From Catajapyx aquilonaris (taxonomy: Eukaryota), in the NCBI GenBank assembly GCA_000934665.2, contig JYFJ02003865.1, positions 1-36,913 of the forward strand: 36,913 nt of DNA. Reading direction: 5' to 3'. Every line of letters starts with the position of its first letter. The stretch's first letter is position 1. Below, one piece after another: positions 401 to 33,229 of the stretch. The translations under genes were made by a program, and so were the position numbers. The notes beneath the pieces are model-generated. The model saw only the letters and a program-made list of their open reading frames with translations, was not told the origin of the DNA and did no database searches.

Positions 401-1199
401 AGGTAGGTAAATATGCCGATTGATATATCGAAAAATATCAATTTTTAGTGTCTCCAGCTGGAAACGAAGACGAAACATGCACATTGCTGGGAGGGGGGGG
501 GGGGGTAAGGCAGGGGAGAGGGTCAAAGAAGGGCATGATTTAAAACCTCCCAAAACCTATCACACACCCCCATCCTCGCCGTTCAGAGCCTCACATGCAC
601 ACTGCATGGGGCCTTCAAATTAAGCGTGGATATGAGAGGCGATATATTTTAACGAAATTTGGGCCACATCTAGCATTAGACTGGTGTTGCTACGGATTTT
701 TAAATGGGGCTTAGAGCCGCATGGCAGATGTATAACGCATTATTCTCTTCAGTTTAAAAAGTACGGTATTGTCCAAAACACAATGGAAGCATTGTCAGTT
801 GCCGTGCATTTTATTTTTCTGTCGACGGATTGTTGGTAGGGGACAACTGTTACGTCTGTTGCTTCCCTTATAACACTTACCAGAGCGATGTAGCCTGTGG
901 AGTATATCCCAAATACAGTAAATTACTCATTGATGTCATTGTGATTACTGATTGATTAATGGTTTAATGGCGCAACAATGACCTATTTTCCAGACTAAGC
1001 TCCGAGGGATACTGGGCAAAGAAAGGAGCGGCCGCGAGCGTGAGTTGACGTTGGAAAAGGTTAACATATAGATGAGGGGAACCATGCGTTGGACCAGGTT
1101 AACCAAGTGCGGACCAGGACAAGGTGATGTTCAACGAGGTGTTGGACCAGGTTAACAAAAATGGTAGGAACACTCGTACAATATGTATTGTACTTATTA

Positions 1200-1362
1200 C
1201 AGTTGAATCTGGATATAACAATCTCGGCTATAACAGACTTTCGTTCTTAAATGCCGGTTCCGGCATGCTTCCATATAGGCCCAGTGTATTTTTACTTACT
1301 CCTGATATAACACTCATTTTCACCTCACCTCGGGTATAACAGACCATTATTTCGTGGCCCCT
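1200..1362. mobile_element. One-ended Tigger/pogo-like MITE fragment, same family as 11139-11285
   Basis: TA|CAGTTGAATCTGGATATAACAATCTCGGCTATAACAGACTTTCG matches the reverse complement of the right end of the element at 11139-11285. No matching opposite TIR found. Confidence 0.7.
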
Positions 1363-1419
1363 CGCCTCGGAGGGAAAATCTAGTTTTTCAGGTATAAAAT
1401 AGTCAACTCTGAAATGTTA

Positions 1420-4400
1420 CCCTGACCCCGAGTCCTGCTCTGGACACGAACTCTGACAAAAACCACTCGCGGTAGAGTGGAACAAAATTGGACACAAAGA
1501 AGGCATATATCAACGAGTAACAGCTTCACAAGTATCTAATAATTTCACCGACATTACCTGAGGCATAAAATTACTGCTACGGCTCGTTAACAAAGGCACG
1601 TTTCAGCACGTAGATAATTAATTTGACCAATTTGGAGACCAGGTGGAACATTCTACAGGGACATGCAGCGAAGAATGTTGGTTCGCTTCACCTATGACTC
1701 GAATGATACATGAATTGAAACCTACTACAAAGAATGGGGTGGACTATTTAAAACTCAGCTAAACAAAATGCACATGCATTTTCCTCTCTCCCTCTCATGA
1801 AGATGGCAACAGCCAAAGTTCCGTATTGCGACTGTTACTAATTGTTAAAATTTATAACTCCAGTTTTACATTTATGTCTCAGAATACTGCCCGTATTACT
1901 AGGTAGGCAAACTACTACTAAGACAGCTTCCAACATACATCATTTCATCAAGAGGAAAGTACCTAACACTTCTCAACAATGGTTTTTCCCAGTGTCTGAC
2001 TCTGTCAATGTTTACCGAAATATCAAGATACGATACGAAGTCCTGGAAGTGATCCGAACAATTAATGGAATATTTGTGAATCGCTGCCATAGGTCAGACC
2101 AACTCATGACTTCAAGGTTGATCCCATGTATCAGGAGGAGGCTGCTTTACGTGGGCTACTTTGTGCTGCTGGCTACTATAGTGGTAAAAACACAAATAAT
2201 TCTAACTAGACAACACCTGGGATTCTAGCAACATCTACTCTTCAAACAAGTAGAAGACAATCATAAAATTCTAACCGATTGATCAACAACAAGATGATGC
2301 ATTCAACGACACTGGCAAAGCAACGGGCACCTCTCTGGGGATGGCTGAAAGTATACGGATAGGCCAGTTCCATTCAGCTCGCATACTGTACAGTACCAGT
2401 AATCTTCACATCAGTACAAGCATTTTCAAGAGCATTAATAATATTATTCAGAAGTGAGATGAGAAGCGAAATGGACCAATACCCCAGCTTTCGACTGATG
2501 CGGGTCGTCTTGTTCAGCCTGGGCGAAAATGAGAAAATGTTTCGCCTCAATTCGGAGAGAGAGACTACTTAAACCTTCATCCCCCGCCGAATTTTGGGCA
2601 GTTGTGAAAACAACAAAGAAACTTTACCCGATTGGCCCCAGATACAAGACAAATGGTGACAGCTTTTGAAATACCTTCCAAATTACATCACAAGTTGCCA
2701 ATTGCGAACTGGCAGTAGCAAACCCAGAAATATAATGAGTTAACGACGAGAGAGATAAACCATTAACACTGTTAGAACTTCATCTAGCTATCTAGACGCT
2801 TAAACCAAAAACAGCACCAGGTCCTGATTTAATATCCAATAAGCTAATCAAAAAAAGACACTTCAAGTATTTTGGAGACTTCATTTGTTATCTTTAAAAA
2901 CAATCTAAATTCACAACATAATTCCTAAAAATTGGGAGTCAGGCGAGGATAACCCGATCATACAAGCTCAAAGCTCAGCTTGTACCTATGTGAATATTAT
3001 GTGACCAACAATAGAGGTATTTCGCATGGCATCAGACGGCATGACACTTGGTAGTTATTACTTTTTTTTCTACCGCAAATACTTCACCTGTATTTAATAA
3101 TCTCACAGACATTTCCTTAATAACTGAATTGATCCTATGGCTTGTTAACAAAGGCATGTTTCAGGTCGATTATTAATTTGCCGGAGTTCGACCCTGTGGA
3201 ACACTCAACAACTTCTTTTCAACAAGGTATAACCTCAGCAGACAAATGAGTGCCTCTAACTGTAAGCTCATAGGATGAGCAAGGTAAAAGGCAACCTGTA
3301 AATATCGGGATTGCAAGCCACATTTCTCTGCACATATGAGAGCAATTTTTAAGAGCATGCTGAATACGAATTTTCAAGAGTGTACAAAGGGGCTTAAATA
3401 TAGTGGTAAAAATACAAATAAGTCTAACTAGACAACACCTGGCATTCTGTGTACCATGCTCCGCAAGCATTTGAACATGGCCATTGAGTCGTGTTTTGTT
3501 GCATGGAGCACCATCCGCTCCAGAACGTCCAGGTATTGTAACGTTGCAGAGGTGTTGTAAACAAACCCTTGTTCCACTTCTGAACACCCCATTAGTATAA
3601 GAAACACCACATGAGGACTAACCCCTAAAATCATCTCACTAACCTCTCTAAACCCAGTCATAAATTTCACCAGTTTAGGACAATAGTAGTCCTGCCTTCT
3701 CTCTTTCTTCCATAACTATACACATAAGACATAACTATACTTCCAATCTTCTGGCAATATAATTGTTTGAATAGATAATATTTCAAAGTGATCACTGCCA
3801 GTGGCTTAAATGAGAGCAAATATTTTAATTGGATAGTTGGAATTTTACCAGAGGATACTGGAAAGTGAGCATCTGTCATGCAGAAGCGGCATCACTCGAC
3901 CACTCCGACTCACCAGTCATGATCTGTCCGAATCATATGCCCAACTTGCAGATAGTTACAAATGCCACAAGGAATGACAGGGATTCAAAATGCCAACGCC
4001 TGTCACAAGAACATCTCTCCAACATGGGGAACATTCCACATTCTCTTCCAGAATGCATAACCTTAACAGCCTCCAGGCAAACGAGTTCCTCTCATACGAT
4101 AGTCAGCATGAGCAACTTAGAATGCCGTGTGTAATTGCATTGAAACACAGATTCGGCCAAATGGCATTTTGTACTAACAAGTAAAAGCCTGTGGAATGCA
4201 AATTTTCAGAGGTGTATAAACTGGCAAAAGGTGACAACATTAGCGAAAGGAATAGCGTAACATGAGTATAACCTCCCAAAGTACGCCTGCTCGGTGCAGT
4301 TCCAAAAGAAGAAACAGCTCAAATTAGTGGGAATGACCACTTGACATGTGAAACACTCGGAATATTTGTCGGTTGATGCAAGTGAAAGGCTTAACTTGCA

Positions 4401-6900
4401 CTCAACTCTTAAAGACTCTCCCGATGCTCTATGTATTCTGATTTTAGAAAGGAGGAGAAATGACCATCTGAAGGAATATCATACGCCATTCATCAACTAT
4501 GGGATATTGTGACTAGAGGCAGGCAAACACTCCAGAACAATTCTCCATAAAGACTGAAATTTCTACCTTGTCCGAGAGATGGATGTTACCACATTGTACG
4601 CACTGCAAAGAATGGCAGGTCTTCTCCTCAGAGATCCTTTCAGCAGGGTTTCACCCATGAAGGAGTACAACTGCACCGCATTCAACAAGAACAATTGCAT
4701 AACATCAACACACATTTCCATACAGATTCAGTGGGATTAGCAGAAGACTACAATTCATGAATATTTTTTCAAATGACATCAGGACCCTCTCATCCTAGGT
4801 GTGCTTCCATGACCTGGAAACGAAGTACTGTTACATTAAAAATCGAAATATGTTATTTAATATTATCAGGCATTCTGAACTAATTCTTACAACAGATGGC
4901 CTGGAACTCAGCGATAATAAACAATTCACCAACAGTCATATTCATGTTTCTCTATCACGTTCATGACCATTCAAAGGAAACCAGAGCTACAAGAAAAGAA
5001 CTAATACAAGAACGTAAATCCCTAACTGCCCAAGGAATCCACACTGCATTTAAAAAACCACTGTCTGATTATAAATAATACCCATTTACCTGGTCCCAAG
5101 GGAAATTGAACCACAAATGACATGAACCACAGATGCAAAAATATATGAACTGAAGTAACACTGTCTGCTCATGTGCAGTGTATAGTGCATACATAGTATG
5201 CCCTTATGACGAGGTACACTTCATTAAAACAAAGAGCATCTAGCGAGGACGTGTTTCTCCGACCTGGAATCCTGCTCTGGGTCTGAACTCACCTCTGAGA
5301 AAAACTACTGTGACGCAGAACTGCACACAAAGTTGGCACCATTACAACAGCATTTTTAGGAAGACACTGCCTTGTACTACCAAAAGCATACAGTAACACC
5401 TTTATTTCGAATAAACAGACAACATAATTTTCTAACCAAATGTTGAATCATACGACATGGCAGCTCTCTAATTCTAATAACATGTCATACTTATATCAGA
5501 GGAGTCTAGTCATTACGACCAGTATCATGTAGGCGAGGATGCCTCTTCATTTGTGTCACGATACTGTTGGTATGTTACACACTGAACAAGTCATCATAAA
5601 ATATATGAGCATATTTAACACTCGCTGCCTATGCATTGTGTGTAGTATGTGAACAGGTCGTGTCAAAATTGACTATCCGCGCATTGATCTCATACAAAAG
5701 ACAGTACATTCCCAGCCATATGGTTTCGTCTCAACACCAAAGAAGTCATGGAGGAAGGCAGAGAAAGACTCGAAAGCAACATGTACCTCCCTGCGGACAG
5801 TTTACAGTACGGATTTGAGCCAGCTCCATTCAGCTGGCTTTTTCCAGCCTTTACCTCAGTACATCAGCATTTTCAAGAGCATTAATAATATCATTCAAAA
5901 GTGACTTGTGGTTATTTTAGTCATTTGTACAAATATACAACTTTCTAGTCTCAAGTGTCAGTACACGCTTTATTTGACGTGTCACAACTCCGCAGGATTT
6001 CAAAATGATTAAGTAGTCATTCCGATTTACCCAGTCTTTACATTTCATTCAAGGACTGCGTATTCTATCAATGGTTTTTTGTACATACCTCTGATGATGT
6101 AAATCTTTTGTTTTTGCTTTTATTTTATTTTCTACAGTAAACTTTTGTGATGCCAATGGCTGTCTCCCCCCAATGGCCACCGATCCCATCAGGTTAATAA
6201 ATTAATAACTACATAAATAAATTTTAGTCAAGGTAATGGGTAATTTGTAATATTTGTAAATTCCCATGGCAAATATTTCATGCATTTATAACACCTACAC
6301 CTGAGTGTGTTATTATTGTAATTCATAAGAGGCTCAATGCCCACGGAACCAAGTGTCAGTGGAAAATGAGACCTGCAGTGTGATAAGTAGGAGTGTGATG
6401 TACGACCCCTAGGCTGGTTAAAGTCTGCACGATTACCCTTATCGGCTAGTGCAATCCCACAGGATGGAACAAGGAAGAGGCACCCTCACTACGAAAGGAG
6501 GACGAAACATGCAAATGCATAATTGGACTTGGTGGACCAAAGACAACGATGAGAACACGTCTTTAAAACCAAGACAAACTTGTTATTTTAGTCAATGTGA
6601 AGTGTTACACTGACCCTGAGTCCTGCTCTGGACCCGAACTAATCTCTGACAAAAACCACTGGCAATAGAGTGAAACAAAATTTGCACACAAAGTGGGAAG
6701 CCACGACTGCGGTGTTGTTAAGAAGACACCACCTTGCATCTAGCATAGCACAGAGTAACAGCTTCACCTGTATTTTTAATAATTTCACAGATGTTTCCTA
6801 AGGCATAAAATTACATCTACAGCTTGGCACTTTTCCTAAAAGTATGCTGCCGCTGTCAGTTGAAATATTCACACAATTGAACAACTTACCCCTGGGCCTG
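1420..6900 (-). repeat. Mosaic of degenerate local duplications, possibly decayed paralogous pseudogenes
   Basis: Shared blocks: CCTGCTCTGG...CACAAAG at about 1422-1499, 5259-5332 and 6610-6693; CTTCAC...AATAAT...GACAT at about 1515-1606, 3081-3180 and 6753-6830; ATAGTGGTAAAAA...CTAACTAGACAACACCTGG at about 2177-2220 and 3400-3442; CCATTCAGCT...GCATTTTCAAGAGCATTAATAAT at about 2351-2457 and 5807-5904. Confidence 0.75.
2470..2970 (+). mobile_element. Decayed non-LTR retrotransposon ORF2 fragment (pre-RT region)
   Basis: From 2775: ELHLAI*TLKPKTAPGPDLISNKLIKK, then a broken IPKNW...ARI...YK. These match the classic 'K.APGPD.I.N..LK ... IP..WK.A.I.PI.K' motifs of LINE ORF2. Stops and frameshifts are present. 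Confidence 0.75.
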
Positions 6901-11285: not shown

Positions 11286-11361
11286 TAATACGTAACGGAC
11301 GAAGCATGTATCGTTACAGGGATATGAAAACTATTTTATTTCTCCGTTAATTCCACAGTGG

Positions 11362-12789
11362 TCAAACCTCGATGTCCGGCATGGACATAAGGGGCGCTGG
11401 GATGTCCTCTGGGTTCATGTCCCCTGTGATGATGAGTCCTACTAAACCCATGTCGCTGTTGCGGCTCTCCTTCTCCCACCTCTTGATGACGGAGAGGGAC
11501 GGAAGGATGAAGCCATTGGCTCGGAGGTACCTGTACGCCAATGGTCCTTGATCGTACAGACTCAGCGCCATTGCCCGCTCTTCCTCCGTGAACTGCTGGC
11601 CTTTTCCGCCCGACCTCACTTGAAGCCTGCAGAGGGTCAGCGCGTCCCCCGATAGCACCTCTTCCAGTCCTCTAGTCAATCCCTTTCTGCCTGGAGGTTG
11701 CTCCAGTTGGGCTTGCATCCTCTGGATCCTCCGCTGAAGGTAGTTTATCTGGTTGCGGAGGCGGTGGGTGACCAGTCGTCTGTGCTCCTTCAAAGCCTCC
11801 TGCTGCTTCAGTGTTCGGCGGCCAGTCTGAGTCATGCGGCTGACAGTGCGTGGCGCCTTCGACACTGTAATAAAAATGGAAGAATACACTTCCGTTGCGA
11901 TGCAAACTGATTAGAATCTCACCTGTTTGTGTACTGGCATCCATTGCGTCGTCTTCAATCGCCACACCTCTATCATCCGCCAGCACACTATTTCTCTGTC
12001 GCCATTTCGCCTGCTCTTTGTCCCTCCTGGCATTCTTCCTGGCTTCGTCTCCAAAGAGAGTCGGTATGGCGTTGTGCACCAGCCTGTTCCTGGCGGGACT
12101 GAGGAAGCTGGTCTCTAAGAAGTGGGCGGCACAGACCCTCTTGTTGCTCAGCATGTTTCTCTCGAGGTGCCACAGCTTATCGGAATCCACCTCCGACAGC
12201 CAACGTTCACACCTAAAAACGCAGTGTTTACATGTGGGCGATTCGCCAAGGGTCTGTAACGCAAGTAACCAATATTTTTTGAGGGTACCTGATATTGTCA
12301 TGTACAGGGAACCTGAAGAAGGACATGCCCATGCTTGGCCTGTTTGAGCACGACGGAACCACACACTGGGTCTGCCGCTTGCACTCCTGCTGAATACCCG
12401 CTTTCTGGATCAACTCCAGAATCTCCGCCGAGTACGGCGCAGGTCGTGGGATGGGATCGGACACACGAGGCGGGGCATCAGCTCCAGGAAGACGAGTTGG
12501 CTTTAAACTGGGACGACCACGAGGAGGCCTAACCTCCCTGTGAAATGCAGAAAACTTGTTTTACCGGTACACGACTCTTCGCCGCAATTGTAGAGTTGGC
12601 TTTGGTAATTTTTTGTGTGTGTAGTTGACCCCCAGCTGTACAAGCTACAATCGACACAGTTAATTATAATAGAAAATATAATTATTTCAACAACATTATC
12701 AACCATTAACATAAGTTGGATCAATTCCCACACATTTTTAACCTTATTAGCATGTCTTACCCATCACACCTTGAAGCCTCCTGGCTCAT
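11362..12789 (-). CDS. THAP zinc-finger / coiled-coil / P-element-type HTH protein, about 356 aa, 4 exons (12789-12761, 12537-12289, 12212-11923, 11864-11362)
   Basis: GT-AG introns join in frame. THAP C2CH motif CVVPSCSN..FFRFP..R.ERW...RVCAAHF...LVHNAIPTLF, then coiled coil RLRNQINYLQRRIQRMQAQL, then FTEEERAMALSLYDQGPLAYRYLRANGFILPSLSVIKRW as in P-element transposase N-terminal regions. PRGRP (AT-hook-like) in exon 2. The first exon is less certain (alternative ATG at 12928). Confidence 0.85.
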
Positions 12790-14768: not shown

Positions 14769-17313
14769 ATGATGAGTTTGTCACTTTATGTTCTAATACT
14801 GATCTTTACTGTGCTGCAAGTAAGTACATACACCAGTATCCGTTTGTTTGTGTGTTGGTTCGTTTGTTCATTTGTCCAAGTTTCATCGTTTGTTTGTTCA
14901 TTTCTTAATTCGTTCGTTCGTTCGGTCATTAATTTCTTCCTTTGTTCATTTGTTCGTTAGTTAGCTTGTTCATCATTTGTTTGATCGTTTGTTTGTCCAT
15001 TCATTAGTTCGTTCCTTCGTTTGTCCAACCATGCATAATTCACTCGTTCATTTGTTTCTTTGTTTATTCCTTCGTTGGTTCCTTTTTGTTCATCTGTAAA
15101 TTTTTCATTCGTTTGTTTCATCATTTTTCGTTCGTTCATTCCTTCGTTGGTTCCTTTGTTCTTTATTCATCCGTGAAAATTTATTTATTTGTTTGTTCAT
15201 TTCTTTGTTATTTGTTCATTCGTTCGTTTGTTTGTTTGTTCATTTGTTTGTTATTTGTTCATTCGTTTGTTATTTGTTCAGTCGTTTGTTTGTTCGTTTG
15301 TTTGTTCATTTGTTCATTTTTCATTAGTTTGTTTGAAAAATACGTTCGTTCGTTCATTCATTTGCTCATTTGTTTGTTTGTTCGTTCGTTCTTTCGTTTG
15401 ATTGTGAGTTTGTTTTGTGTATGACTGAGCTCGTTTCTCCAAAGGCTCAAATCCAGATCAAACCTGACATCAACGACGCCCTGTTGGCAGACGCTCTCCA
15501 CAACATCATCGAGCTACAATGTCCGGAGTGTCCGCTAGCAGTTGGAACGGACTACTCGAACCTGAGCACACCTTTGCAACATCTGCTCAAACGGACCCAA
15601 ACCCAGTATCTGTCAGTCGTAATGAGCATGATGATGGACTCATTTCCTTACGACCCTGCAGACTACCCATGGACCTGGAAGCCCGAGCATCTCCTGTCAT
15701 TTCGGACCCAACCACCCGAACTCCGATCCAAATTCTGGCCTGGAACCACCTCCTCATTCAACATCATCCTGTCGACCACAGCATCCAATGTGCCCCATCT
15801 GATCATGCACACAGCAAGTTCGTTCATGATACGAAACCTGTACGACCCTGTGTTCATCCACGTTCATCAGACAGGAGCTGAAACACTTCTTCTGCAGGAT
15901 CCTGCTCAAGGAATCCGGATGAAGATGCTGTCCAGCTATGATCAGACGAGATTGCTTCTCCACACTGTTTGTTACTTCTGCAACAATGGACAGCATGTTC
16001 TGAACAATCCGATTGTGTACGACTCTAGTAAGTCCCTAGAGCGTCGTGATGTGCTGGCTGCTCCTGGACGATACAGAAATGGTAGAGTGGTCGTGCTCGG
16101 ATATGTGAATGATATTGATGTTGAAGATGCTGAGACACGAGAGAGGAACGGCGACTTGTTAGTTTACGCCGAAAGCGCTCTACTTGACTTACAACGACGT
16201 TACGACATCAAGGTTGTCATCAAAGTTCCGGAGCTGACAACAAAAGAGCTGCATCCAAACGGAAGTTTGACAGGCCTGTCAAATGCGGTTGTGTCCAGAC
16301 AGTGTGAAGTGATGTTAGTGACAATATACACTGAGGTGTCAAACAGAGCTGTGATGTTGGGATATCCTGTCTGGTATCTTCAAGCAGGAATTGTGACTCG
16401 AATTCCACATGATGATATGAAGTGGTACTTGATATTCCAACCTTTTAGTCTCATAGTGTGGATCACACTATTAGGATCAATCGTGGTATCATCCATAACT
16501 TTGTATTACCTCAACACTGTCAGTGACTGTAAATCATATCCGATACATATGTACATACAGCATCTATTACGTGAGATAATTTATCAGCCTTTGTCGCCTC
16601 TTCTCAACACAAACCCAATACTTGTGTTTCACGTCTTCTGTTCATTACTTGCTATTGTCATATCCTGCGCTTATCAGACAAAATTAGTTCAGCTAATTAC
16701 ATTTCCGAGGCCAGAAGTTCTACCTGTAACAGTTTCAGATCTTTACAAGTCGACGTGGACATGGGGCACCACCTTACTTATGTCAGTAATGTTCAGTCTG
16801 GCAGCAGAAAATATTGACAGTAATCACATTATCCAGGACTTACTTAAAAATGTCCAGATCATCCCAACTATTGAGGAGTGTTTTGAGAAGACGCTGCTAG
16901 AGGATTTCGCATGCATAGTTCCAAACTTTGTCTACGATCAGAATCGCGATTATTACTTAGATGACAGAGGAAATCCTAGAACAAAATTTTGGGGACAAGA
17001 AGGATTCAGTCTGTACACTGGAGTTTCTTATGGAAGAGACGACATCAATTTTGTTCGTGAAGACAAAGATATGCAGAGGATTTTTGAAGCTCACATTCCC
17101 AAAGCTAGAGAATCTAGGGTCAACACCATGTTGTTCTTAAGAAAAGTGTTGAGCATCAGCAGGAAGAACACCCAAGTTGGACACAAAGAGAAGGAGAAGA
17201 TTTTAAGCTTCTCGAAGCTAGCAAACATTTTCTTCATACTTCTCATAGGTTATATGATGTCTATTGTCGCACTTGTGTACGAAACACTGAAGCATTCATG
17301 GAAAAATCACTAA
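14769..17313 (+). CDS. Divergent ionotropic receptor (IR, iGluR-related chemoreceptor), about 639 aa; exons 14769-14819 and 15445-17313
   Basis: Signal-peptide exon MMSLSLYVLILIFTVLQ|GTAAGT, phase-0 acceptor TTTCTCCAAAG at 15444. Pre-M1 WYLIFQPFSLIVW, M3 AIVISCAYQTKLVQLITFP, M4 LSFSKLANIFFILLIG...LVYE. Confidence 0.9.
14842..15420. repeat. Degenerate compound tetranucleotide microsatellite (TTTG/TTCG/TTCA)n filling the first IR intron
   Basis: About 580 bp of TTTG, TTCG and TTCA units. This explains the spurious F/V/C/S-rich ORFs in the track. Confidence 0.95.
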
Positions 17314-17983: not shown

Positions 17984-19988
17984 ATGATGTTGCTCCTGTT
18001 GCTTCTTATCATCTCAATGTCTGGAAACTCACTGGTAAACCTAATTTACTCTTAATCATTGATATGTTGTTAACCATAACTCTTAACCAATTGATTTGCT
18101 ATTACAGAGATATGTGAAGAGAGCGGAGATGTCAAACAAATTTCTTGAGAGCATCAATCCTGAGGATGTCATCGTGACAAGAACAGTGAAATCCATAATC
18201 CAGTCCTTCTTCTCCGGATGTTCATTGACACTATCATTGGATCATCCTGGAGTCAGCAAGCCTCTGGAGCAACTAATGATCTGGAATCACAAATCCAGAT
18301 ATCCGATGATGGTCAGCACCATGAGGAACTTTCCTTACAACAAGGACTACCCGTGGGTATGGAAACCCTCGCAACTCATGTCGTTCCGGACCCAACCTCC
18401 TGAGCTTAGGTCTCACACATGGCCTGGAGGAACCTGCGCCTTTAACATGATACTGGTTCTAAACACTTCAAATCTCCCACAGACAATAATGTATGCAGCT
18501 TCTGTGTTCAAAATGCGGAACTTGTACGACCCATTCTTCATTCATGTTCAGGAGTTGAACAGTCAGAACTCGCTGCTTCATGAACCTGTTCGAGGAATTA
18601 GGTTGAAGTTGATGTCACAGTTTGTCTCCAGGAAATTGGAGTTCTATAATGTCTGTTACTGCTGCAATCATGGTGAGGACACTCTGAACAAAGTAGATCA
18701 AATGAGCAGTATGTTTCCTGATCCTCCGAGGAATCTGAATGGCAGAAGACGTGTTGTCGGATTCATTGAGGATGTGGACATGAAAGGAGCTAAGATCAGA
18801 CATGATAATGATGAGTACATCAGCTCAACAGAAGAGACAATGCTGATGATCCAGGAGATATTCAACTGTGTGTTGACAGTCACTAAACCTGAGTTCACAA
18901 CTTCTGATCTGAATCCAAATGGAAGTCTAGCAGGATTCACTAGTTCTGTGTTCAGAAACGAGATCACATCAGCAGGAGTGATCTTCTACACTGATGTGGC
19001 TGAACGTGCTCTGATGTTAGGACATCCGATGTACTATCTGTACGGAGGGTTTGCCACAAGGATACCCAGATCAGAGATCAAATGGTACTTGATCTTCATG
19101 CCGTACTCACCTGGTATGTGGTTAGCTCTAGTCGCATCCTTACTACTCACAGCTACGACACTATCCGTACTGGACAGACATCGCATTGTGTTTGGACTTA
19201 TCAACACACATTTCAAGCTTCTTCTGCGTGTGCTTCTAGAGCAGACGTCGTACTTCTCACGTGACACTCCAACACTCATGCTTCATGCACATTTTCTGGC
19301 ATTCTCCATTGTTGTCATTTGTCTGTATAAGACCAAGTTGGTGTCACTCATCACCTTTCCGCCTCCTGAGGACATTCCGACAACAGGTCTGCAGTTGATC
19401 GAATCCGAGATGACATGGGGCACCACTGGTCTTCTGGTCATCGGATTAACAGTCGCGGTACAGAACCTGAACAACCCAGTGTATCGGCACGTACTAGACA
19501 ACGTAGTGCTGACTCCAACACTGCGAGACTGCGTGAACCGTACGCAAACAGAAGACTTCGCCTGCATAGCACCAGACATCATGTACCACAGAGAACGCGA
19601 CTACTTCCTAGACAAGAATGGCAATCCAAAGACCATCTTCTGGACTGACAGATCCGTCAACGCCTACACTGGTCCTGCGTACGGAAGAGACGACGTGCAC
19701 TTCGTGACGATGAACAAGGTGCTGAAAGGTCTGGCTGAAGGTGACATCGTGAATCACATCATACTTGCTGTGAATCACAGGAACTTTGTGAGGAATTACT
19801 TCCAAATCCTTCGTGGCAATGTGGAGACTTTGTTTGAAGAAAAGGAGAGTATGCTGGATGTTAAGAAGCTGGCCAACATCTTCCACATGTGGTCTGTCGG
19901 GATGGGACTGTCCTGCATTGGGTTTGTCTACGAGAAGTTTCGGTGGAGGATAGTGAAGAGAAGTTGGGACTGGGGGTTCCTGCTGTGA
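17984..19988 (+). CDS. Divergent ionotropic receptor paralog, about 643 aa; exons 17984-18034 and 18108-19988
   Basis: Signal exon MMLLLLLLIISMSGNSL|GTAAAC, acceptor TTACAG at 18107. Shares DYPWxWKP..L.SFRTQPPELRS, RNLYDP, CY.CN.G, KWYLIF.P.S, TWGTT, EDFACI.P, YGRDD and KLANIF with the upstream gene. Confidence 0.9.
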
Positions 19989-22592: not shown

Positions 22593-24912
22593 TCAAGATT
22601 CCGTGACAGGCTCACGAGGCAGCCACCTGGATTGGTCCAAGGCATTCCAGAATTCGTAGGTCCGCTCCATCACCATTCGGTTCATGGTGTCTACGTCCAA
22701 TGGAAGGTTATGTTCTGTAAGAGGACAGGAATTGTCAATCCAAATTGGCCAGTACACAGTGATTGTACTTACCAATGAGCTCAAACTCATCCTCCTGCTC
22801 TGCTGGCTTCCCTGCGACGCCTGCAGCTCCCATGACTCCTCCAACCATCGCACCACCCATCATCGCTCCACCCATCACCTGCTGCTGGCCGCCTGCAATA
22901 CCCATGGTGGTCCCGTACCCCCCGTAATAGCTCCCGTAATTCTGCCAGGCAGCGTAGTTCTGCCAGTACTGCTCGTAATACTGGCTGTAATCGCCAGGCG
23001 TTGCAGCCACCTGACTTGTGGCCATGTTGGCCACGTTCATTCCCGACTGGTACATCTCCGACTGCTGTGCGAGGGTCTGGGCAGCCGTCAGCTGGGTGGT
23101 GGCCATTGTGCTGGCCATAGTTGTGGTGCTGGCCCCAGGCGAAGTGGACGTGGTGGACGAAGTGGTGGAGGTCGTGGATGGAGAGCTGCCCCATCCGTAC
23201 TTATACCCTTTCTGAACAGCCAGGCTCACTTTGATGGGACGTCCACCCAAGCCTCGGAAGCCGGACATCTGCACCAAGGCGTCCTTATGCTCGTCCTCAT
23301 TAGCAAAGTGGATGAATCCGTACCCTCGGCTGAATCCAGAGTTGTCCATGATCACTAGTGGAGTGAGAATATGGGTCGCAAGGTGTCACAATCGATACTG
23401 CACAACTGACCTTTGGCTGTACGGATTGACTGATACCGAGTGGCAAAGGCTTGGTACAGTGCGTAGTCGTCAACATCCGGAGTCAGGTCACCTATCCACA
23501 AACTGAATTCACGATCAAGCTGCGGACGTCCGCTCACACTTGCATGATTCAGCTTGAAGCGGACAGGCTGGAAAGCAAATAGTCTTTTTACAAACAGTGT
23601 GTGGCATAAACCTAAAAGTCATCAAATGTATGCCCTTTCAACCAATGCTACAAACAAGCTTCCCGTAATAATGAAAAACATCGTATGTATCTCTACTGAT
23701 AAACCAACATGTACTGCAGGTTTCCCCCACATTTCAATAACAGCGAGTTGGTTAAAAAAAATTTAAACAAGCCTCTCTTGTCACCATATAATCACCTTCA
23801 CAGGCTGACTGTTCGGGATGACCTTTCCGTTCAGCCTGTGCATGGCCGTAAGCGCAACCTGGTCGTCCTTGAACTGCACGAAGCAATATCCGGCTGGCTC
23901 GCCCGTGAACTTGTTGCGCATCACCTTCACGTTCAGCGCCTCTTCGCCCATCTGGAGAAACGCATTCTTCACAAAGGGCTCGTCCATGTATGCCTCAAGC
24001 TGAAATAGGGGGTCTGAATATTAGGACAATTAACAAGACGTACATTGTTTATTATTGCTTCTGAATTTTTAATAAATATATTCAGTCGATTGTCCGGCCA
24101 AGTTTTGAATTTAAAAAATATATATACAGGGTGGTCCAAGTTCAAGTGTCGTTTTATAACGGCGATTAATAGAAGCGCTTAACGATGACGTAGCAGCGAC
24201 GTGTAAAATTGCCCACTTCGATGGCGCCGAAGATGCGCCGAAGTGGGACATTTTACACGTCGCTGCTACGTCATTGCAAAATCACTGCTATTAATCGCCG
24301 TTATAAAACGACACTTGAACTTGGACCACCCTGCATATCCCGCTGATTGTTCAGTAGGGGCCTAACGTAATTAATTTTTTGTTTAAATATTATGGTGATT
24401 GTAAGGCAATGTTCTGAATTTTAATATATTCTGTTGTTCCGTAACGTACTGAATTTTTTTTTTTAAATAAAAATTCTGTCAATTGTACGGCCAAGTTCTG
24501 AAATATCCAGTTGATTGTACATCCAACTTTCTGAATTAAACATTTTCCGTTGATTGCACAGTTATGATTTTTTTTAAAAAAATGGCTGATTGTGCGTATG
24601 CCATGTAACAGTAAGACTCAGATTATAATAATTTTTACTGTTACATACGCCGCCATTTTGTCTCGCCATTTTTTTTCCACTGATTGTACCGCAACATTTG
24701 GGTCGTTATTTTTTTTATACAACTAATTATAGATCGTCCGGCCAACAATTGCGTTCTAAAACGACAGAAATTAAGATGTGCCGTGACTTTAGCCATAAGA
24801 ACGGAGTGTATTGACCTTCTTTTTTCTAATTCTTTTTTTCTTCTTAACCCTAGGGCCGCCCCTTCCATTAATTACTCACGCCGCCCATCCAGAGCGAGCC
24901 TTCCCGACTCAT
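22593..24912 (-). CDS. TRNAU1AP: tRNA selenocysteine 1-associated protein 1 (SECp43), about 363 aa; exons 24912-24880, 23999-23802, 23567-23411, 23354-22773, 22714-22593
   Basis: SLWMGGLEAYMDE...AGYCFVQF...LNGKVIPNSQPPVRFKLNHA (RRM1); FSLWIGDLTPDVDD...SRGYGFIHF...GLGGRPIKVSLA (RRM2); Tyr-rich stretch; C-terminal LDVDTMNR...FWNALDQSRW. All introns are GT-AG and in frame. Confidence 0.95.
24127..24333. mobile_element. Palindromic Tc1/mariner-type MITE (207 bp) in TRNAU1AP intron 1
   Basis: CAGGGTGGTCCAAGTTCAAGTGTCGTTTTATAACGGCGATTAATAG ... CTATTAATCGCCGTTATAAAACGACACTTGAACTTGGACCACCCTG. Almost the whole element is an inverted repeat. TA on the left, CA on the right. Confidence 0.9.
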
Positions 24913-25922: not shown

Positions 25923-28900
25923 TCACATCAACAGTTTGCGGAAGTCCGCATTGCTCATGGCTGGTACTTTCCTCTTCTCCTCCGTCGTCTCACCTCCGTT
26001 CACCTTCGCACTGGTCCCGCTGGACGTCGGAACCTGGACGGACCTGGGGACGAACGAGAGCTGGCTCCTGCCCTTTCCACGTCTGTAAAAGAGCAAGTAC
26101 GTTAGGGGAAAATACGATGGTTGGGTACAATGGACACTTACATTCCCAGGTCCTTCTTGCCGCCTCCGAGTGACGCGATTATAGGCGTTATGGCAGACAC
26201 TGCGGCTTTGTTTCCACGCTGTGCCGCAAGCCCGCCTTCCTTACGTACTGGCGGGTTGCTCAGTGCGACGGATATGACCTTATCGCCTATCTTCATCCCG
26301 TCCGTCTTGACCAGAGCAACGGCAGCTGATGTCTGCAATAGCGACCCAACAATTATATGCCCATATTGCATTACAAGTACTAACCTCATCGGCGTAATCG
26401 ACATACGCGAATCCTTTCGAGTGTCCGTTCCTGTACGTAGCTAATCGGATGGCCTTTAGCTTCCCATGCGTTCCGAACAGTTCCTTCAGCTCCTCCTCGG
26501 TCGTCTCGAATGGCAATCCCTTCACGAACAGCTTGTTCTTTTCCAGCCCCATCGCAGCAACGTACGACGGGAGTCCTCGCAATCGCTTCTCCTGATCGCA
26601 TGGCGACACAAACATGGGTCGTCCTTCCAAGCGAGTACGATCGTGCTTCAATGCAGCTTGGGCCTCTCGCTGAAACATCAACAGTTACAAATTGTCACCG
26701 ATCACTGTGCAGACTCACCTGTTCGGAGTACACGACGTAGCAGAATCCTTTGGACCTGCCTTTAAAGTCCCGCACCAATCGGACCTCTTCGACCTTCCCG
26801 TACTGCGTGAAAGTCTCACGTATTTTGGGCTCCCCGACCGAGAAGTCCAGGTTGCTTACGAACACCGTCTGACAGTCTTTGGCCGGGTCGTGCTTCACCG
26901 TCTCGCCATGTTGCGGCTCCTTCTCTGTCTTCTCCGGCTCGGACTTATCCGCCTTTCCCGGCGCTGCTGGCTTTTTGAACACACCGGCTTCATCTGCATG
27001 TAAAAACATATTAAAATGTGCGGCCATATTAATCGCAGTCTCACCTTTCTTTAGTTTCTTCTTAGGAGGCTCCGGCGCTTTCATATCCTTCCGTTTGACC
27101 GCCATCCGCTTCTTAGGTTCCTCCCGCTCCGTCTTTTCTCGTTGAACCACCTTAGTCGCCACTTTAGTCTCTGCAGCCTCCAACGACTCCAGCGTCCCCC
27201 AGTCTCGCTCAAAGTCCAACCACGCTTCGCCCACATCCTCAGGCGCGTCTTTCGCAGCATCGATTGCCCTCTGGAATGTCCGTCTAACCTGCTTGGTTCC
27301 AACCCCGTTCGCAATCTCCAGACGAGCCAGTTCCAACCAGTTTCTGGCTCTGTGGCCGGTTTGGCTTAGTATGTCGGACCACAACTGGCGCGATTTTGGG
27401 AAGTCGCCGGATCGCATCTCGAACCGTGCCCACCACCTGAAACTGGAAGTGTATTAACTCGATCAAAACCAGTATGGACGGTTATTACCTGAGCAGGATA
27501 CAGTCGGGGTCGCCGTCTAGTCCGAAGTACTGCGCCAGATGCTCGCAAGCGCGGTTGAACGTTAAACGGATTTCTTCCTGGCTTCTTTCCAGCTCCTGTT
27601 CGCTTTCCGGCTGTGATGCGGGGATATTCCGCATGAGATACTCGATATAGGCGATCCAGACAGTGCGGTAATCCAATGCTGTTGTAAATCCGCTGCCCAA
27701 TGCACGCTCTATCAGCTCTGGAAAAGACGGAGGTCAGTCCAGGTTGAGATGCGGGTGAGACAATACCTTTGATTTTATTCCGGGGCTGCTCGAACCGCTC
27801 CATTGATCGGAGATAGCTGCACCACAGCCTTACTTCCCATGGACAGTTACGGACGGCCCGTTCGTGATTTGGCAAAGACGCCTCGGCCGACTTAAGCTGC
27901 ATATCCAAATACCGCGTGTAGTCCGCCCACAAGCCAGAATCGAGACAGCACTGACTCACAGCACGCTCGTACATACACTGGATACGCGCCGGATTTCCAC
28001 TGGTCATTTCCTGCAAAATCAATCCGTTATTCCGGCAATACGCACCGAATGTTGGAGCGTACCTGTTGAATATATTTCCAGTACACCTGCGCCTTCTCGG
28101 TGTCCGATGCTGCGTCCAGCTCCTCCTCGATGGGCTTGAGTGTCCGCAGCATCTCCTTTGCCTTTTTGTACGCAGACTGGTTGGCCGGCTCCTGATTATT
28201 GGCGGACATCCACTCTTCCATCTCATCCCAGGTCGACTCCATCCCCAGAAGCGGGATGGACAGCTGACGTTTGTATATGGACACGATGCGCATTTTCTGC
28301 CGCTGCTCGTCGTCTTGGGTTGTTTCACGGACCTAAAATTTGCGGGTTAAAGATGGCTGGGTTGAGTCGGGGTGGGACTGACCTGCGCTACGGCCAGCAG
28401 TGCGTTCTCAAACTCCCTGAATGCTTCCCAGAGTATAGCGCCTTTGGACAGATGTAAGCCGCCTGACGCTACGGCTCGTTCAAACAGCCGCCTGCATTCC
28501 TCGACGCTCTCTCCTCCGTCGCCCATTCCTCCGAGGGCGAACTGCACGTACTCCAGCCACACCTCCACGGACATGTAGTCCCGAATGGCCCGCTCAAACA
28601 GCCTTCGAACCCCTTCCTTCTCCTCCTTGCTGGAGGCCAGCTTGGACTCATCCGCTATCCAGTCCAGCCACAGCTGCTCGGACATGGGGAAGTGGCTGGA
28701 CATGAACTCACGGGCTGGACGCAGCCTGTCCAGGTCCGCAGTGCGACGCAGCAGCCCGATCAGCTCCACATGCTTGTCGTACATGTGCGGACTGGCCTTC
28801 ACCTGTTAATTAACAACGCAACTAATTAAGACGCATGCACAGCGTTGCATTGCTGTCATTTGTGTAATTAATTGACAGCCGACGTTCCAATCCCCCAATA

Positions 28901-29568
28901 AAGTGTGGTCATCAAAACCTGTGCTTCCAGCTCTTTGATCTGCCTCTCCGTCTCCTCGTCCTTCTCGTCCTCATCCGACGACGATGAGGAGGAGGAGGAC
29001 GACGACCCACCCTGGACGTCCATGGCGTCTCCGTCTCCACCAGGCGTCTCCTCCTCCTCCTCCTCCGAAGACGTCGAAGCGTCGCTCTCCCAGAGTTGCC
29101 AGATCGTGAGATCGAGTAAATGGTACCAACCCTCGAAATTAATGGTACTTTTCCGGAAAAGATGGTACATTTCAAAAATGGTGTAATTAATGTTAATTAA
29201 AGACAATTTAAATTTAAATAGCCGTAATTAAAAAGTTAAACATGATAAAGTAGTCGAAACCGGGGAAAGTAGTAAAGTACTGGCGGGGAGGGAAAAGCGC
29301 GCCGCAGGCGATTTTTTTTTAGGTTCAAGGTCACACAAGTTTTGGTGAATGTAACCTACTGGGAGATCTGAATAGGTGTATATGTGGTTAAATTGGTATC
29401 ACTTTTTTCATGGAAGTGGAATTACAGAGTAACATTGGACATGACAAAATAAGGTACTTTTTGCGTACCATTATGGTACATGGTACGGAACCCGAAAATA
29501 TGGTATGAATACCATAATTATGGTACATCTGGTAACACTGCGCTCTCCTCTTCCATACCGGCCTCCAT
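25923..29568 (-). CDS. SART3: SART3/Prp24 U4/U6 snRNP recycling factor; exons 29568-(insertion)-28919, 28802-28383, 28332-28063, 28010-27767, 27717-27489, 27436-27045, 26993-26719, 26669-26385, 26332-26142, 26082-25923
   Basis: Acidic N-terminus; HAT repeats (LWLDWIADE, LFERAIRDYMSVEVWLEY, YKRQLSIPLLGME, HERAVRNCPW); two RRMs (TVFVSNL...SKGFCYV; KLFVKGLP...SKGFAYVDY); C-terminal LSm-binding motif MSNADFRKLLM. The 5' end is interrupted by a transposon. Confidence 0.95.
29091..29540. mobile_element. Non-autonomous DNA transposon (hAT-like), 450 bp, 8-bp TSD
   Basis: TIRs CAGAGTTGCCAGAT / ATCTGGTAACACTG (12 of 14 match). Identical TSD CGCTCTCC at 29083-29090 and 29541-29548. Subterminal ATGGTAC repeats at both ends. 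Confidence 0.93.
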
Positions 29569-29649
29569 CTTGGAACTTGCCAAGATAACAGTTACTTAAC
29601 TGGAAAACAGCCAGCCAAAGGACAAGCTAATATATTAGCTCAATTATTA

Positions 29650-30375
29650 TTCTATAGCTGCTATTGGAAATAGCAGCTACAGTTTTGATAGCGACATGTT
29701 ATTGCAAATAGCTACGATCAAATGCATAGCTGCTGTTTAAAACAATAGCTATCGGCCAGCTTTTGTAGCTGTGGTTGCAAATAGCGGCTACTTCCGATCG
29801 TAGCTGTTGTTGCCAATAAGTTAGTTGCTTCATTTGATCGTAGCTGTTGTTGCGAATAGCTGCTACCACCGATTGTAGCTGTTGTTGCAAATAGCTGCTA
29901 CCACCGATCGTAACTGTTGTTGCGAATAGCTGCTACCTCCGATCGTAGCTTTTGTTGCGAATAGCTACTGCTTCCGATCGTAGCTGTTGTTGCAAAAAGC
30001 GGCTACATTTGATCGTAGCTATTTGCAATTACATGTCCATCAAATGTAGCTGCTGTTTACAATATTGTAAACAGCAATGCATGCCGTTCAAAATGTAGCT
30101 GCTGTTCACAATAATAGCTTTCGGCCGGCTTTCGTAGCTGTTATTGCAAATAGCCGTAAACTGAAACGAAGGTACTAATATAATTATAATAGCTGCATAC
30201 AATCTTATAGGCTTGATAAGCTGTTATTTGTGCAAGACAGTTATCGTTCGTAAGATGTCAATGTATCAGCTATTTACAAGTAGCTGCTTATGGTGTGAGT
30301 TAACTGCTATGAAATTTGATTTTCCAGCTACATTGGGATGGCTTATCAGCTTATGACTACTTGAAGTAGCTGCTA
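29650..30375. repeat. TAGCT-rich repeat complex with a central 35-bp tandem array
   Basis: GATCGTAGCTGTTGTTGCGAATAGCTGCTACCACC-like units at 29836, 29871, 29906, 29941, 29976 and 30011. 29701-29724 is the exact reverse complement of 30006-30029. Confidence 0.9.
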
Positions 30376-30915: not shown

Positions 30916-33229
30916 ATGATGTACCAGTATGGGACGGTGCTTGGCGACCGTCCGCAGTCGTCGTACAGCCTGCGTTCGAGTAAGCATTCCCTGGAGAAGG
31001 CCCTGGTGCAGAGAAGGAACATGGTTGAGCGCCACTGGGAGCTGAGGGATCAGGCGTACACTTTCTTCAAGGAAGGCCAGAAGTTGTTGGATAAGAAGAG
31101 GGCAATCGAGTCAGATCAGGCCAAGCTGGCCAGGTGAGGTTGTAGGGTAAATACCATCTGAAATGACATTAACGGTTGCGTTTTTAAAGCCTGGCTGCGT
31201 ACCAGGAATCCAAGTCGCCGGAGATGAAGCAGCGTCACCTGCAAGAGCGTCGTGAGCGCCTACGTGCCTTCCTGCAGACGGAACAGGAGAGTTTCGATGT
31301 GCAACTGGAGGCGCTGAAGGAATCGGAGAAGAAGAAGGCTTACAACTCAAAGGAGATGGATTACCTAACGGTGGAACTACGACGGAGGAAGGAAGAGGCA
31401 CTGCTGAGAGAGGCTGAGCTGATTCAGTTTGAGAGGTCCGGGTTTACAGTTAATGTGCTATGTCACATGTAATTAAATAAATATCTGCATACTGCACATG
31501 CGTAGATTCACATCACCCTAAAAAAATTAATAATTTCAGTTACAAGTAGCACACTGAGAACATCGCAGTACAGTTGCAGCTCTTTCTTAATGATGCTACG
31601 TCATCGATGTAATTTTATGATCGCTGTAGCATGGTAATTGATTCAATTAGATGTGTACTGAACCTGCGTTACATTTGCAGATGGAAGGCAAGTCGTCCAG
31701 TGCTTCGTCAGACAGAGTCGAAACTGCAGAATGAATTTTCCCGTCGTCTGTGGGCTGCCCAGGTGAAGGAGCGCCTGGAGCGGGAGAATCTGGAGCGGAA
31801 AAGGAAGGAAGAGGAGGCGAAGCAGGTGTTGGAACGAGCACGGGAGGAGGAAGAGAAGGAACTTGAAAAGGAAAAAACAAGGAGAGACAGGTTGTCAATT
31901 TGGAGGAAGGAGCTGTTGCAACAGGTCGGTAGAAAGGTTTAGGTTATGAGGCCACGTTATGATACGATTGTTGCAGGTGCAAGAGTTGAAAGAACGAGAG
32001 AAGGAATACGCCGAGTTGTGTGTGGACGAGAAGCGCTTGTGGGAGGAGAAAGAGAAGGTGGAGGAGGCCATGGAGTGGAAGAAACGAGCAGAGCAGCGGC
32101 GGAAGGCTAGTGAACTGCGGGTTTTCTGGACCAGGCAAGCTCAGGCCAGGCTTCGGCAAAGGGCCAAAGAGGTGAAGGAGGAAGTGGAGGAGGCAGCAGA
32201 GATGCTTGAAAGGCTGGCCAAGCAGATGCAGGAGGAGAAGTGGAAGAAGGAAGAGGGACGGAGGCAACTAAAAGACGAACTGGACCAGGCCAGGAATGAT
32301 CTACAAAAGCAACTGGCTGTTGAGAAGAAGCGGAGAGAAGACGATGACTTCATGTTCCAGTCGGTGTTGTGTACACCAGCTTTATACCAACCATTTTTGA
32401 CACTCGTATTGTTTGCAGGGAGGAAGCGGAGGAGATGTGGCGCAAACGGGAGGCCGAATGGGATTTCGAACGGGCCGCCAGACAGGCCCTGCTTGACCAA
32501 GTGACTTTGCATTTGAAGAAGCAAGTGAATGAGCGGATGTTGGCCAAAAAGAAGGAGCAAGAGGAGTGCGTGCGGCGGAGGGAGGAGCTGGTGGCAGAAC
32601 TGGAGCGGTTGCAGAAGGATGAGTTGGAGGAAGCCGAGGCTGCGGCCAAGAGGAAGGAAGAGCTGGCAAGGCGGCTGATGCAGCAGGTGGATACAAAGAA
32701 GAGGGAGGAAGAGGAAATATTGAGGATGGAGCAGGCTAAGCAGGAGGCTATGAAGAAGGTGGACGAAGCGGATAGAGTCATTGAGGATGTCGTACGCGAG
32801 AGGATGGAACGAGCTGGATTCCAGCCGAAGGTGAGGTTCAAGCTATGGTCATGAGCGTCAGTAATTTGTGCACGTTAGAGGTTTATACGAATACCGTATT
32901 TGACGGCCCCATTTCAGCAGATCATATTCAGGGAAAAAAAGTTTGTGTTGTATTTTCGCATATAAGACGCGGGGCGATTTTTTGAGCTAATTTTTGAGGG
33001 AAAAAAAGTGCTGTCAAATAACGCTTATTGCCAACAATTCGTTTGAATTTAATGTGGGCAGTTGTCTAATTTTATTGCTCTTTACCTTCTGCAATGAGCC
33101 GCTCCGTAAACTGTGAGTGTCCCTTCAAGTGCGCATTAATATTTGCCATTTATTGTCGTTTATGCGAATGTATTAATTATTGCCATTTCTTTTCAGTTTT
33201 GGGGCTACAGGCGTGTGCCGTGGATTTGA
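30916..33229 (+). CDS. TCHP: Trichoplein keratin filament-binding protein; exons 30916-31133, 31190-31435, 31681-31924, 31977-32359, 32419-32830, 33197-33229
   Basis: E/K/R-rich coiled coil with SLAAYQE..MKQRHLQERRERLRAFLQTEQ, RWKASRPVLRQTE and EEAEEMWRKREAEWDFERAARQALLDQV, ending GFQPKFWGYRRVPWI*. All match trichoplein motifs. Introns are GT-AG and in frame. Confidence 0.88.

Follow-up and report, generated by a model that had tools for sequence, protein, structure and literature searches.

Mar of Drosophila willistoni is reportedly a MITE of the hAT superfamily. For single insertions, the nearest precedent to the locus studied here is maize Ds, a hAT-family element that is non-autonomous, exonic, and able to form a potential intron via sites in its ends: Giroux et al. 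are said to have shown on RNA that a Ds element in an exon was spliced from the pre-mRNA, creating an intron de novo. For the BuT2-derived hAT MITEs of D. willistoni, the source paper gives TIRs of 12 bp, TSDs of 8 bp, and lengths of 532 to 927 bp, and it names an 8-bp TSD with short TIRs of 10 to 25 bp as a hallmark of hAT elements (PMC3942097). Introners are known from Micromonas, Aureococcus, Symbiodinium, and others, and two reports describe families among them that take one splice site from the TSD (PMC9860276, PMC11282704); the former also gives 8-bp TSDs for the introners of Aureococcus, whose splicing leaves 12 additional bases behind in the mRNA (PMC9860276). A further study characterizes introners as families of nearly identical introns that are correctly spliced, recur across many genes, and have consistent splice sites validated by transcripts (PMC12130899). 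The nearest animal precedent is the tunicate Fritillaria borealis, whose MITE-like elements, carrying TIRs and TSD-like junction repeats, are removed as introns; these introns are non-canonical, occur genome-wide, and need a lineage-specific permissive spliceosome (PMC11282704).

In this study, we analyzed a contig of 36,913 nt from Catajapyx aquilonaris (JYFJ02003865.1, assembly GCA_000934665.2), referred to in its full length as the window, in which a SART3 homolog is encoded on the minus strand. Logan contigs were used from three genomic DNA runs of one sample (X1, X2, and X3) that carry the same organism code as the window. A 4.7-kb stretch was matched by 138 contigs of X1, 147 of X2, and 128 of X3, nearly all of the short ones lying on the inserted element described below, and 32 of 442 contig pieces are listed. 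A fourth run, X5, whose kind is recorded as "?", behaves like cDNA: one of its contigs skips eight introns and another the 116-nt intron 1, in all cases with GT..AG borders on the gene strand.

The downstream exons of the gene matched the Pfam families HAT_PRP39_N (E = 2.4e-14), Suf (E = 1.1e-9), and RRM_1 (E = 5.9e-13 and 1.7e-16), an arrangement typical of SART3/Prp24, with HAT (half-a-TPR) repeats at the N-terminus and two RRM domains after them. Of 1,528 candidates, 75 were homologs (E ≤ 0.001), and most of these bear the name SART3 or spliceosome associated factor 3. The best SART3 matches, from molluscs, arthropods, and others, show 49 to 58% identity, and a close relative is therefore absent from the database. 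Judged by its sequence, the host gene is a homolog of the SART3/Prp24-type U4/U6 recycling factor. It contains nine introns, all of them skipped in X5 contigs; eight measure 49 to 59 nt, and intron 1 (28803 to 28918, minus strand), which is missing from an intron-less X5 contig, measures 116 nt. All nine are canonical GT..AG introns on the minus strand, unlike the MITE-derived introns of F. borealis.

Translation and the starts of the homologs place the start codon and the first nine codons, MEAGMEEES, at 29542 to 29568 on the minus strand. A start of the form M-x(2-4)-M-[ED] occurs in 36 of the 75 homologs, for example as MAENMEEEN, and since MEAGMEEES fits this pattern, the interrupted ATG at 29568 is regarded as the ancestral start. 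The remaining part of coding exon 1 (28919 to 29082, minus strand) is acidic and Ser/Glu-rich and extends to the intron 1 donor, which is confirmed by an X5 joint; among the first 40 homologs listed, this N-terminal acidic stretch is variable in both sequence and length. A protein search with the exon-1 open reading frame returned seven candidates, none of them significant. Comparison of the orthologous site by way of exon 2 was abandoned, the one related locus (L001, 49% identity) being too distant.

Between these two parts of exon 1 lies a 450-bp element (29091 to 29540, not assigned to a strand), delimited by its TSD and TIRs, by contig depth, and by the contig ends of other copies. The TSD, found by repeat search, is an 8-bp sequence, CGCTCTCC on the plus strand, whose copies at 29083 to 29090 (downstream on the gene strand) and 29541 to 29548 (upstream on the gene strand) are identical at 8 of 8 positions; the upstream copy supplies codons 8 and 9 and the first base of codon 10. 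Immediately inside the TSD, an inverted-repeat search identified TIR arms of 14 nt that are complementary at 12 of 14 positions, the left arm being CAGAGTTGCCAGAT (29091 to 29104, plus strand) and the right arm, read inward, CAGTGTTACCAGAT (29527 to 29540, minus strand). The right arm contains the CA|GT that was proposed as a splice donor. This TSD-plus-TIR arrangement occurs a single time in the window and appeared in 1 of 200 block-shuffled windows. The boundaries were confirmed independently, as positions 29091 and 29540 are exactly where contigs of other copies begin and finish, and the empty-site joint in genomic DNA lies exactly at the TSD. Together with the HAT and RRM domains of the gene, these features bear out the preliminary description in placing a DNA transposon with TIRs and a TSD within coding exon 1 of a SART3 homolog.

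The element has a G+C content of 36.9%, compared with 43% for the window. Furthermore, it contains nine GGTAC/GTACC motifs in 450 nt versus 0.53 per 450 nt in the remaining window, and these are clustered in the outer ~90 nt of both ends, with four of the nine at 29122 to 29168 and five at 29453 to 29526 (both plus strand). The element is devoid of a long open frame: among gene-strand frames that begin with ATG and terminate within the element, the longest comprises 46 codons. RNA folding of the element with its TSDs gave an unremarkable z score of −2.15 and revealed no long hairpin, and the Rfam search yielded just sub-threshold miRNA-like matches in low-complexity sequence.

Analysis of contig depth in X1 to X3 revealed a summed depth of 1,000 to 5,000 on the element versus 23 to 36 on its flanks, with many element contigs 90 to 99% alike to the copy at 29091 to 29540. 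The element thus belongs to a multi-copy family, although depth does not give the copy number. High-depth contigs differ from the copy in the window in 4 letters plus 2 gaps over 268 nt and in 2 letters plus 1 gap over 122 nt, and because these differences are so few, the family is considered young. A second copy was not found in the window, where the 14-nt TIR pattern (up to 3 mismatches) matched just both ends of the element and a blastn self-search returned the self-hit plus matches of at most 24 nt. An exact 22-nt pattern taken from where the element is best covered matched 0 metagenome contigs.

With an 8-bp TSD, a TIR within the range of 10 to 25 bp, and a short, non-coding, multi-copy body, the element shows the features of hAT-type MITEs, and its terminal CAG(A/T)G is presumably compatible with hAT ends. 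We therefore describe it as a putative hAT-like non-autonomous MITE, a class assignment made from TSD length and TIR form. These data indicate that a hAT-like MITE family has recently been active in C. aquilonaris. Like the animal hAT MITEs Mar and those derived from BuT2, the element is short, non-coding, and multi-copy, with short TIRs and identical 8-bp TSDs; the TSDs of those MITEs differ between copies. In contrast to the animal elements, with which it was compared by TSD and TIR form, the copy described here lies in a coding exon.

Two further observations concern the family at large. Contigs of X1 to X3 with a depth of 30 to 35 join 29160 to 29315 (shorter side, 23 letters) and skip 154 nt inside the element, which is probably an internally deleted family copy elsewhere in the genome. 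In addition, many copies diverge from the copy in the window at 29322/29323 and at 29355, where they appear as loose ends, and depth peaks over 29268 to 29424; it thus seems that subfamilies with a common central part exist.

The insertion lies in codons 8 to 10 and breaks the SART3 frame after codon 9, at 29540, within the first coding exon. Unspliced translation from the ATG at 29568 stops after 16 codons at a TAA (29518 to 29520, minus strand), in agreement with the preliminary description. When the flanks were joined by coordinates with one TSD copy kept, the frame was open from the ATG at 29568 to the exon end at 28919, so that removal of the element plus one TSD does restore the frame as had been stated. 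After the ATG at 29568, nine further ATGs (29556 to 29243) all run into stops. Translation also confirmed the two in-frame ATGs that had been named as possible starts: one borne by the element and open into the downstream SART3 frame (29168 to 29170, minus strand), and one in a gacgccATGg context that is the first in-frame ATG downstream of the element (29021 to 29023, minus strand) and at which a protein with a shortened N-terminus might start. All coordinates given in the preliminary description proved correct.

The genomic contigs contain the empty site, for which the preliminary description had suggested population genotyping. X1, X2, and X3 each contain one genomic contig of ~3.5 kb that runs from 25614/25620 through the introns to 29082 and continues directly at 29541 for 30 letters. 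The 29082|29541 joint is exact in all three runs; the contigs skip 458 nt, corresponding to the element and one TSD copy, with 8 letters fitting either side. Because genomic DNA of the same organism includes the empty site, the insertion has not become fixed, and the gene is independent of removal of the element. The preliminary description had mentioned a recent damaging allele as an alternative and had counted a rare heterozygous insertion, together with other copies that avoid exons, against its splicing proposal; the empty site agrees with that alternative and, as far as fixation is concerned, with part of this condition.

The X1 contig carries 0 other letters over 3,463 nt compared with the window and therefore stems from the same strain background. 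The X2 contig differs from the window at 28159 and 28165 and the X3 contig at 28667, and there is thus more than one haplotype in the sample at this locus. Excision of hAT elements usually leaves footprints, and the clean single TSD copy therefore indicates an ancestral allele that never contained the insertion. The reference assembly thus carries a filled haplotype, and an intact haplotype with a single TSD copy coexists with it as genomic DNA. All three empty-site contigs stop exactly 30 letters past the start of the TSD, the point at which a contig from a word-graph assembler would end if a second path, through the end of the element, merged there. These contig ends hint that the filled allele is also present in the sample of X1 to X3. 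Apart from this, contigs of each of the three DNA runs break at 29569, beside the start codon, and positions 29569 to 29721 are covered by a contig of 153 nt; the break may reflect a further variant near the ATG.

The preliminary description had proposed that the element can be spliced out in frame in the manner of an introner, through an intron of 452 nt (29087 to 29538, minus strand) with the borders gca|GTGTTA and CTGGGAG|agc. On such a reading, the spliceosome would use the CA|GT of the TIR together with the AG in the downstream copy of the TSD, or another in-frame pair, and would produce a near-normal protein with two extra residues. The GT is indeed found at the third base of the TIR and the AG in the TSD copy, and translation showed the pair to be in frame. 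To score these sites, we derived weight matrices for donors and acceptors from the nine introns of the gene, with the real sites scored leave-one-out; matrices from nine sites are noisy. The proposed donor (29538) reached −1.9 bits versus 3.6 to 9.4 bits for the nine real donors, and 128 of 221 decoy GTs scored at least as high. Likewise, the proposed acceptor (29087) reached −3.6 bits versus 1.6 to 11.1 bits for the real acceptors and was equaled or exceeded by 76 of 279 decoy AGs; it has a G at position −3, seen at 0 of 9 real sites, and no T-rich tract. Both sites thus lie below all nine real sites of their kind and score like decoys; the preliminary description had also called both weak. 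Some real donors of the gene are weak too, with cag|GTTTTG and cag|GTACGC as loose examples.

The in-frame position of the proposed pair adds nothing to its case. In total, 50 in-frame, stop-free GT/GC..AG pairs span the element (26 with GT), and the downstream codons are GAG-rich, so that an in-frame pair is expected by chance and represents no signal. The best donor nearby is located at 29558 (ccg|GTATGG, 5.4 bits) and the best acceptor at 29132 (2.3 bits). Their combination was discarded, as it is not among the 50 in-frame pairs, and the acceptors that do share a frame with donor 29558 are all poor (−5.5 and −6.1 bits). Introners are characterized by consistent, usable splice sites that come from the element and/or the TSD; sites of this kind were not found with the nine-site matrix, and nothing points to the element being built for splicing. 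In addition, the proposed 452 nt compare with 49 to 59 nt for eight introns of the gene and 116 nt for the ninth, and as an intact allele exists, selection need not have favored a spliceable insertion. Nine X5 joints fall within the SART3 homolog and none across the element; the X5 contig of exon 1 reaches only ~122 letters beyond intron 1, to ~29038 in a GAG repeat, and X5 cover is absent over 29582 to 29738. X5 pieces that match the element differ in their letters from the copy at 29091 to 29540 and therefore represent other copies. The X5 contigs carry no information on splicing or on transcript starts of the insertion allele.

Known systems leave some room for a nascent intron. The maize Ds case is a precedent for an intron that arose de novo from an inserted element. 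Some introners contribute one splice site themselves and borrow the other from the TSD (PMC9860276). Like introners, the element studied here is a non-autonomous TIR/TSD element inside coding sequence, and the 8-bp TSD is shared with Aureococcus. Unlike introners, it is represented by one copy here, its splice sites are decoy-like, and an intact allele coexists; furthermore, this insertion is known from DNA, whereas the Ds case was demonstrated on RNA. The introner model is a fair analogy for the SART3 insertion. Taken together, the weak splice scores weaken the splicing idea without eliminating it, and with decoy-level sites, in-frame pairs numerous enough to arise by chance, and the exact empty site as genomic DNA, introner-like splicing is unsupported and appears unlikely. 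If it took place nonetheless, the polymorphism would represent intron gain by an animal hAT-type MITE in progress, inside the gene of a splicing factor and at the cost of two added residues, and splicing in carriers would have a bearing on how new introns arise in animals.

We favor, at a probability of roughly 70%, a young multi-copy hAT-like MITE insertion allele in exon 1 of SART3 that segregates with an intact allele and is not a new intron. In this scenario, a non-autonomous hAT-like MITE would have inserted recently into codons 8 to 10 and duplicated its 8-bp target. A transcript of the filled allele from the normal promoter would be expected to contain the 16-codon frame followed by nine dead-end ATGs, and the normal protein could presumably not be made unless the element was removed. 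Because the normal protein needs this removal, the filled allele is most likely null or hypomorphic and shielded by its intact counterpart. At best, an N-terminally altered protein with its HAT repeats and both RRMs complete might be initiated at ATG 29170 or 29023. Such a start could yield a functional SART3 in which only ~28 N-terminal acidic residues are lost or replaced, making the insertion a tolerated allele: both ATGs are open in the coding frame to the exon end, the domains from the HAT repeats through the RRMs are all downstream, and the acidic stretch varies among the first 40 homologs listed. The ancestral ATG and nine dead-end ATGs precede position 29170, however, which would make reinitiation inefficient; a promoter in the element would be hypothetical, and the M-x(2-4)-M-[ED] start kept in 36 of the 75 homologs hints at some constraint. 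On balance, tolerance through an alternative start is improbable, if slightly less so than splicing, but if the filled allele were common, this would argue for tolerance.

A trivial explanation would be that repeat misassembly placed the element in the exon and that it is present there in no genome. The Logan contigs of the DNA runs do show the empty site, and a contig bridging the filled junction was not seen among the pieces listed (32 of 442). Against this, a perfect 8-bp target duplication around intact TIRs is a signature of transposition and unlike a repeat-induced join, and each empty-site contig stops exactly 30 letters beyond the start of the TSD, as if the path of the element merged there. 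An artifact of this kind is thus very improbable. For the filled allele, we consider the most likely order of outcomes to be a null or hypomorph, followed by a tolerated N-terminal variant and then by splicing, with an assembly artifact unlikely. As it stands, the segregating MITE insertion is an ordinary feature, a young insertion allele in a coding exon that was captured by the reference assembly, and hAT-like MITE insertion polymorphisms are of a kind already known. For annotation, it means that the reference SART3 haplotype is disrupted and that the gene model belongs on the empty-site allele. The filled allele is also a natural candidate for loss of function, or for truncation of the N-terminus, in a conserved U4/U6 recycling factor.

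Elsewhere in the window, several other features were observed. Positions 11336 to 12560 (minus strand) contain overlapping open frames with a THAP domain (E = 3.3e-6) and a G+C content of ~50%, which could represent a THAP-type transposase relic or a domesticated gene. Two tandem intronless open frames on the plus strand, at 15337 to 17313 (658 amino acids) and 18087 to 19988 (633 amino acids), are apparent paralogs. The 658-amino-acid frame has a weak Lig_chan match (E = 2.6e-4) under the cut-off of Pfam, no homolog of the 633-amino-acid frame was found among 8,000 candidates, and the pair may be lineage-specific and ionotropic-receptor-like. An RRM-domain gene with a Gly/Tyr/Gln-rich tail is located downstream of SART3 on the same strand (22735 to 24020, minus strand).

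Two additional joints were present in the contigs of X1 to X3. One runs from 25645 back to 25500, that is, by 146 nt, and includes 10 additional letters; it is suggestive of a variant with a tandem duplication downstream of the SART3 gene. The other joins 27186 to 29045 with a skip of 1,858 nt and a shorter side of 22 letters; it lands in the GAG repeat and is probably a low-complexity artifact.

On the strand opposite to SART3, open frames rich in Glu, Lys, and Arg with a coiled-coil-like composition and no Pfam match are found at 31950 to 32854 (plus strand), which suggests that they form a divergent gene pair with SART3 and have the intergenic region of 29.6 to 31.9 kb in common. A 35-bp tandem array with 7.2 copies and 80% matches is located at 29765 to 30020, ~200 to 450 nt upstream of the SART3 start. 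Near the array, and also at 29650 to 29790, several inverted repeats of 27 to 36 nt are formed by its AGCTGCTATT..GCAAATAGC unit. Because DNA contigs cover the array at single-copy depth, it is local and not a dispersed repeat, and it might be part of the promoter region.
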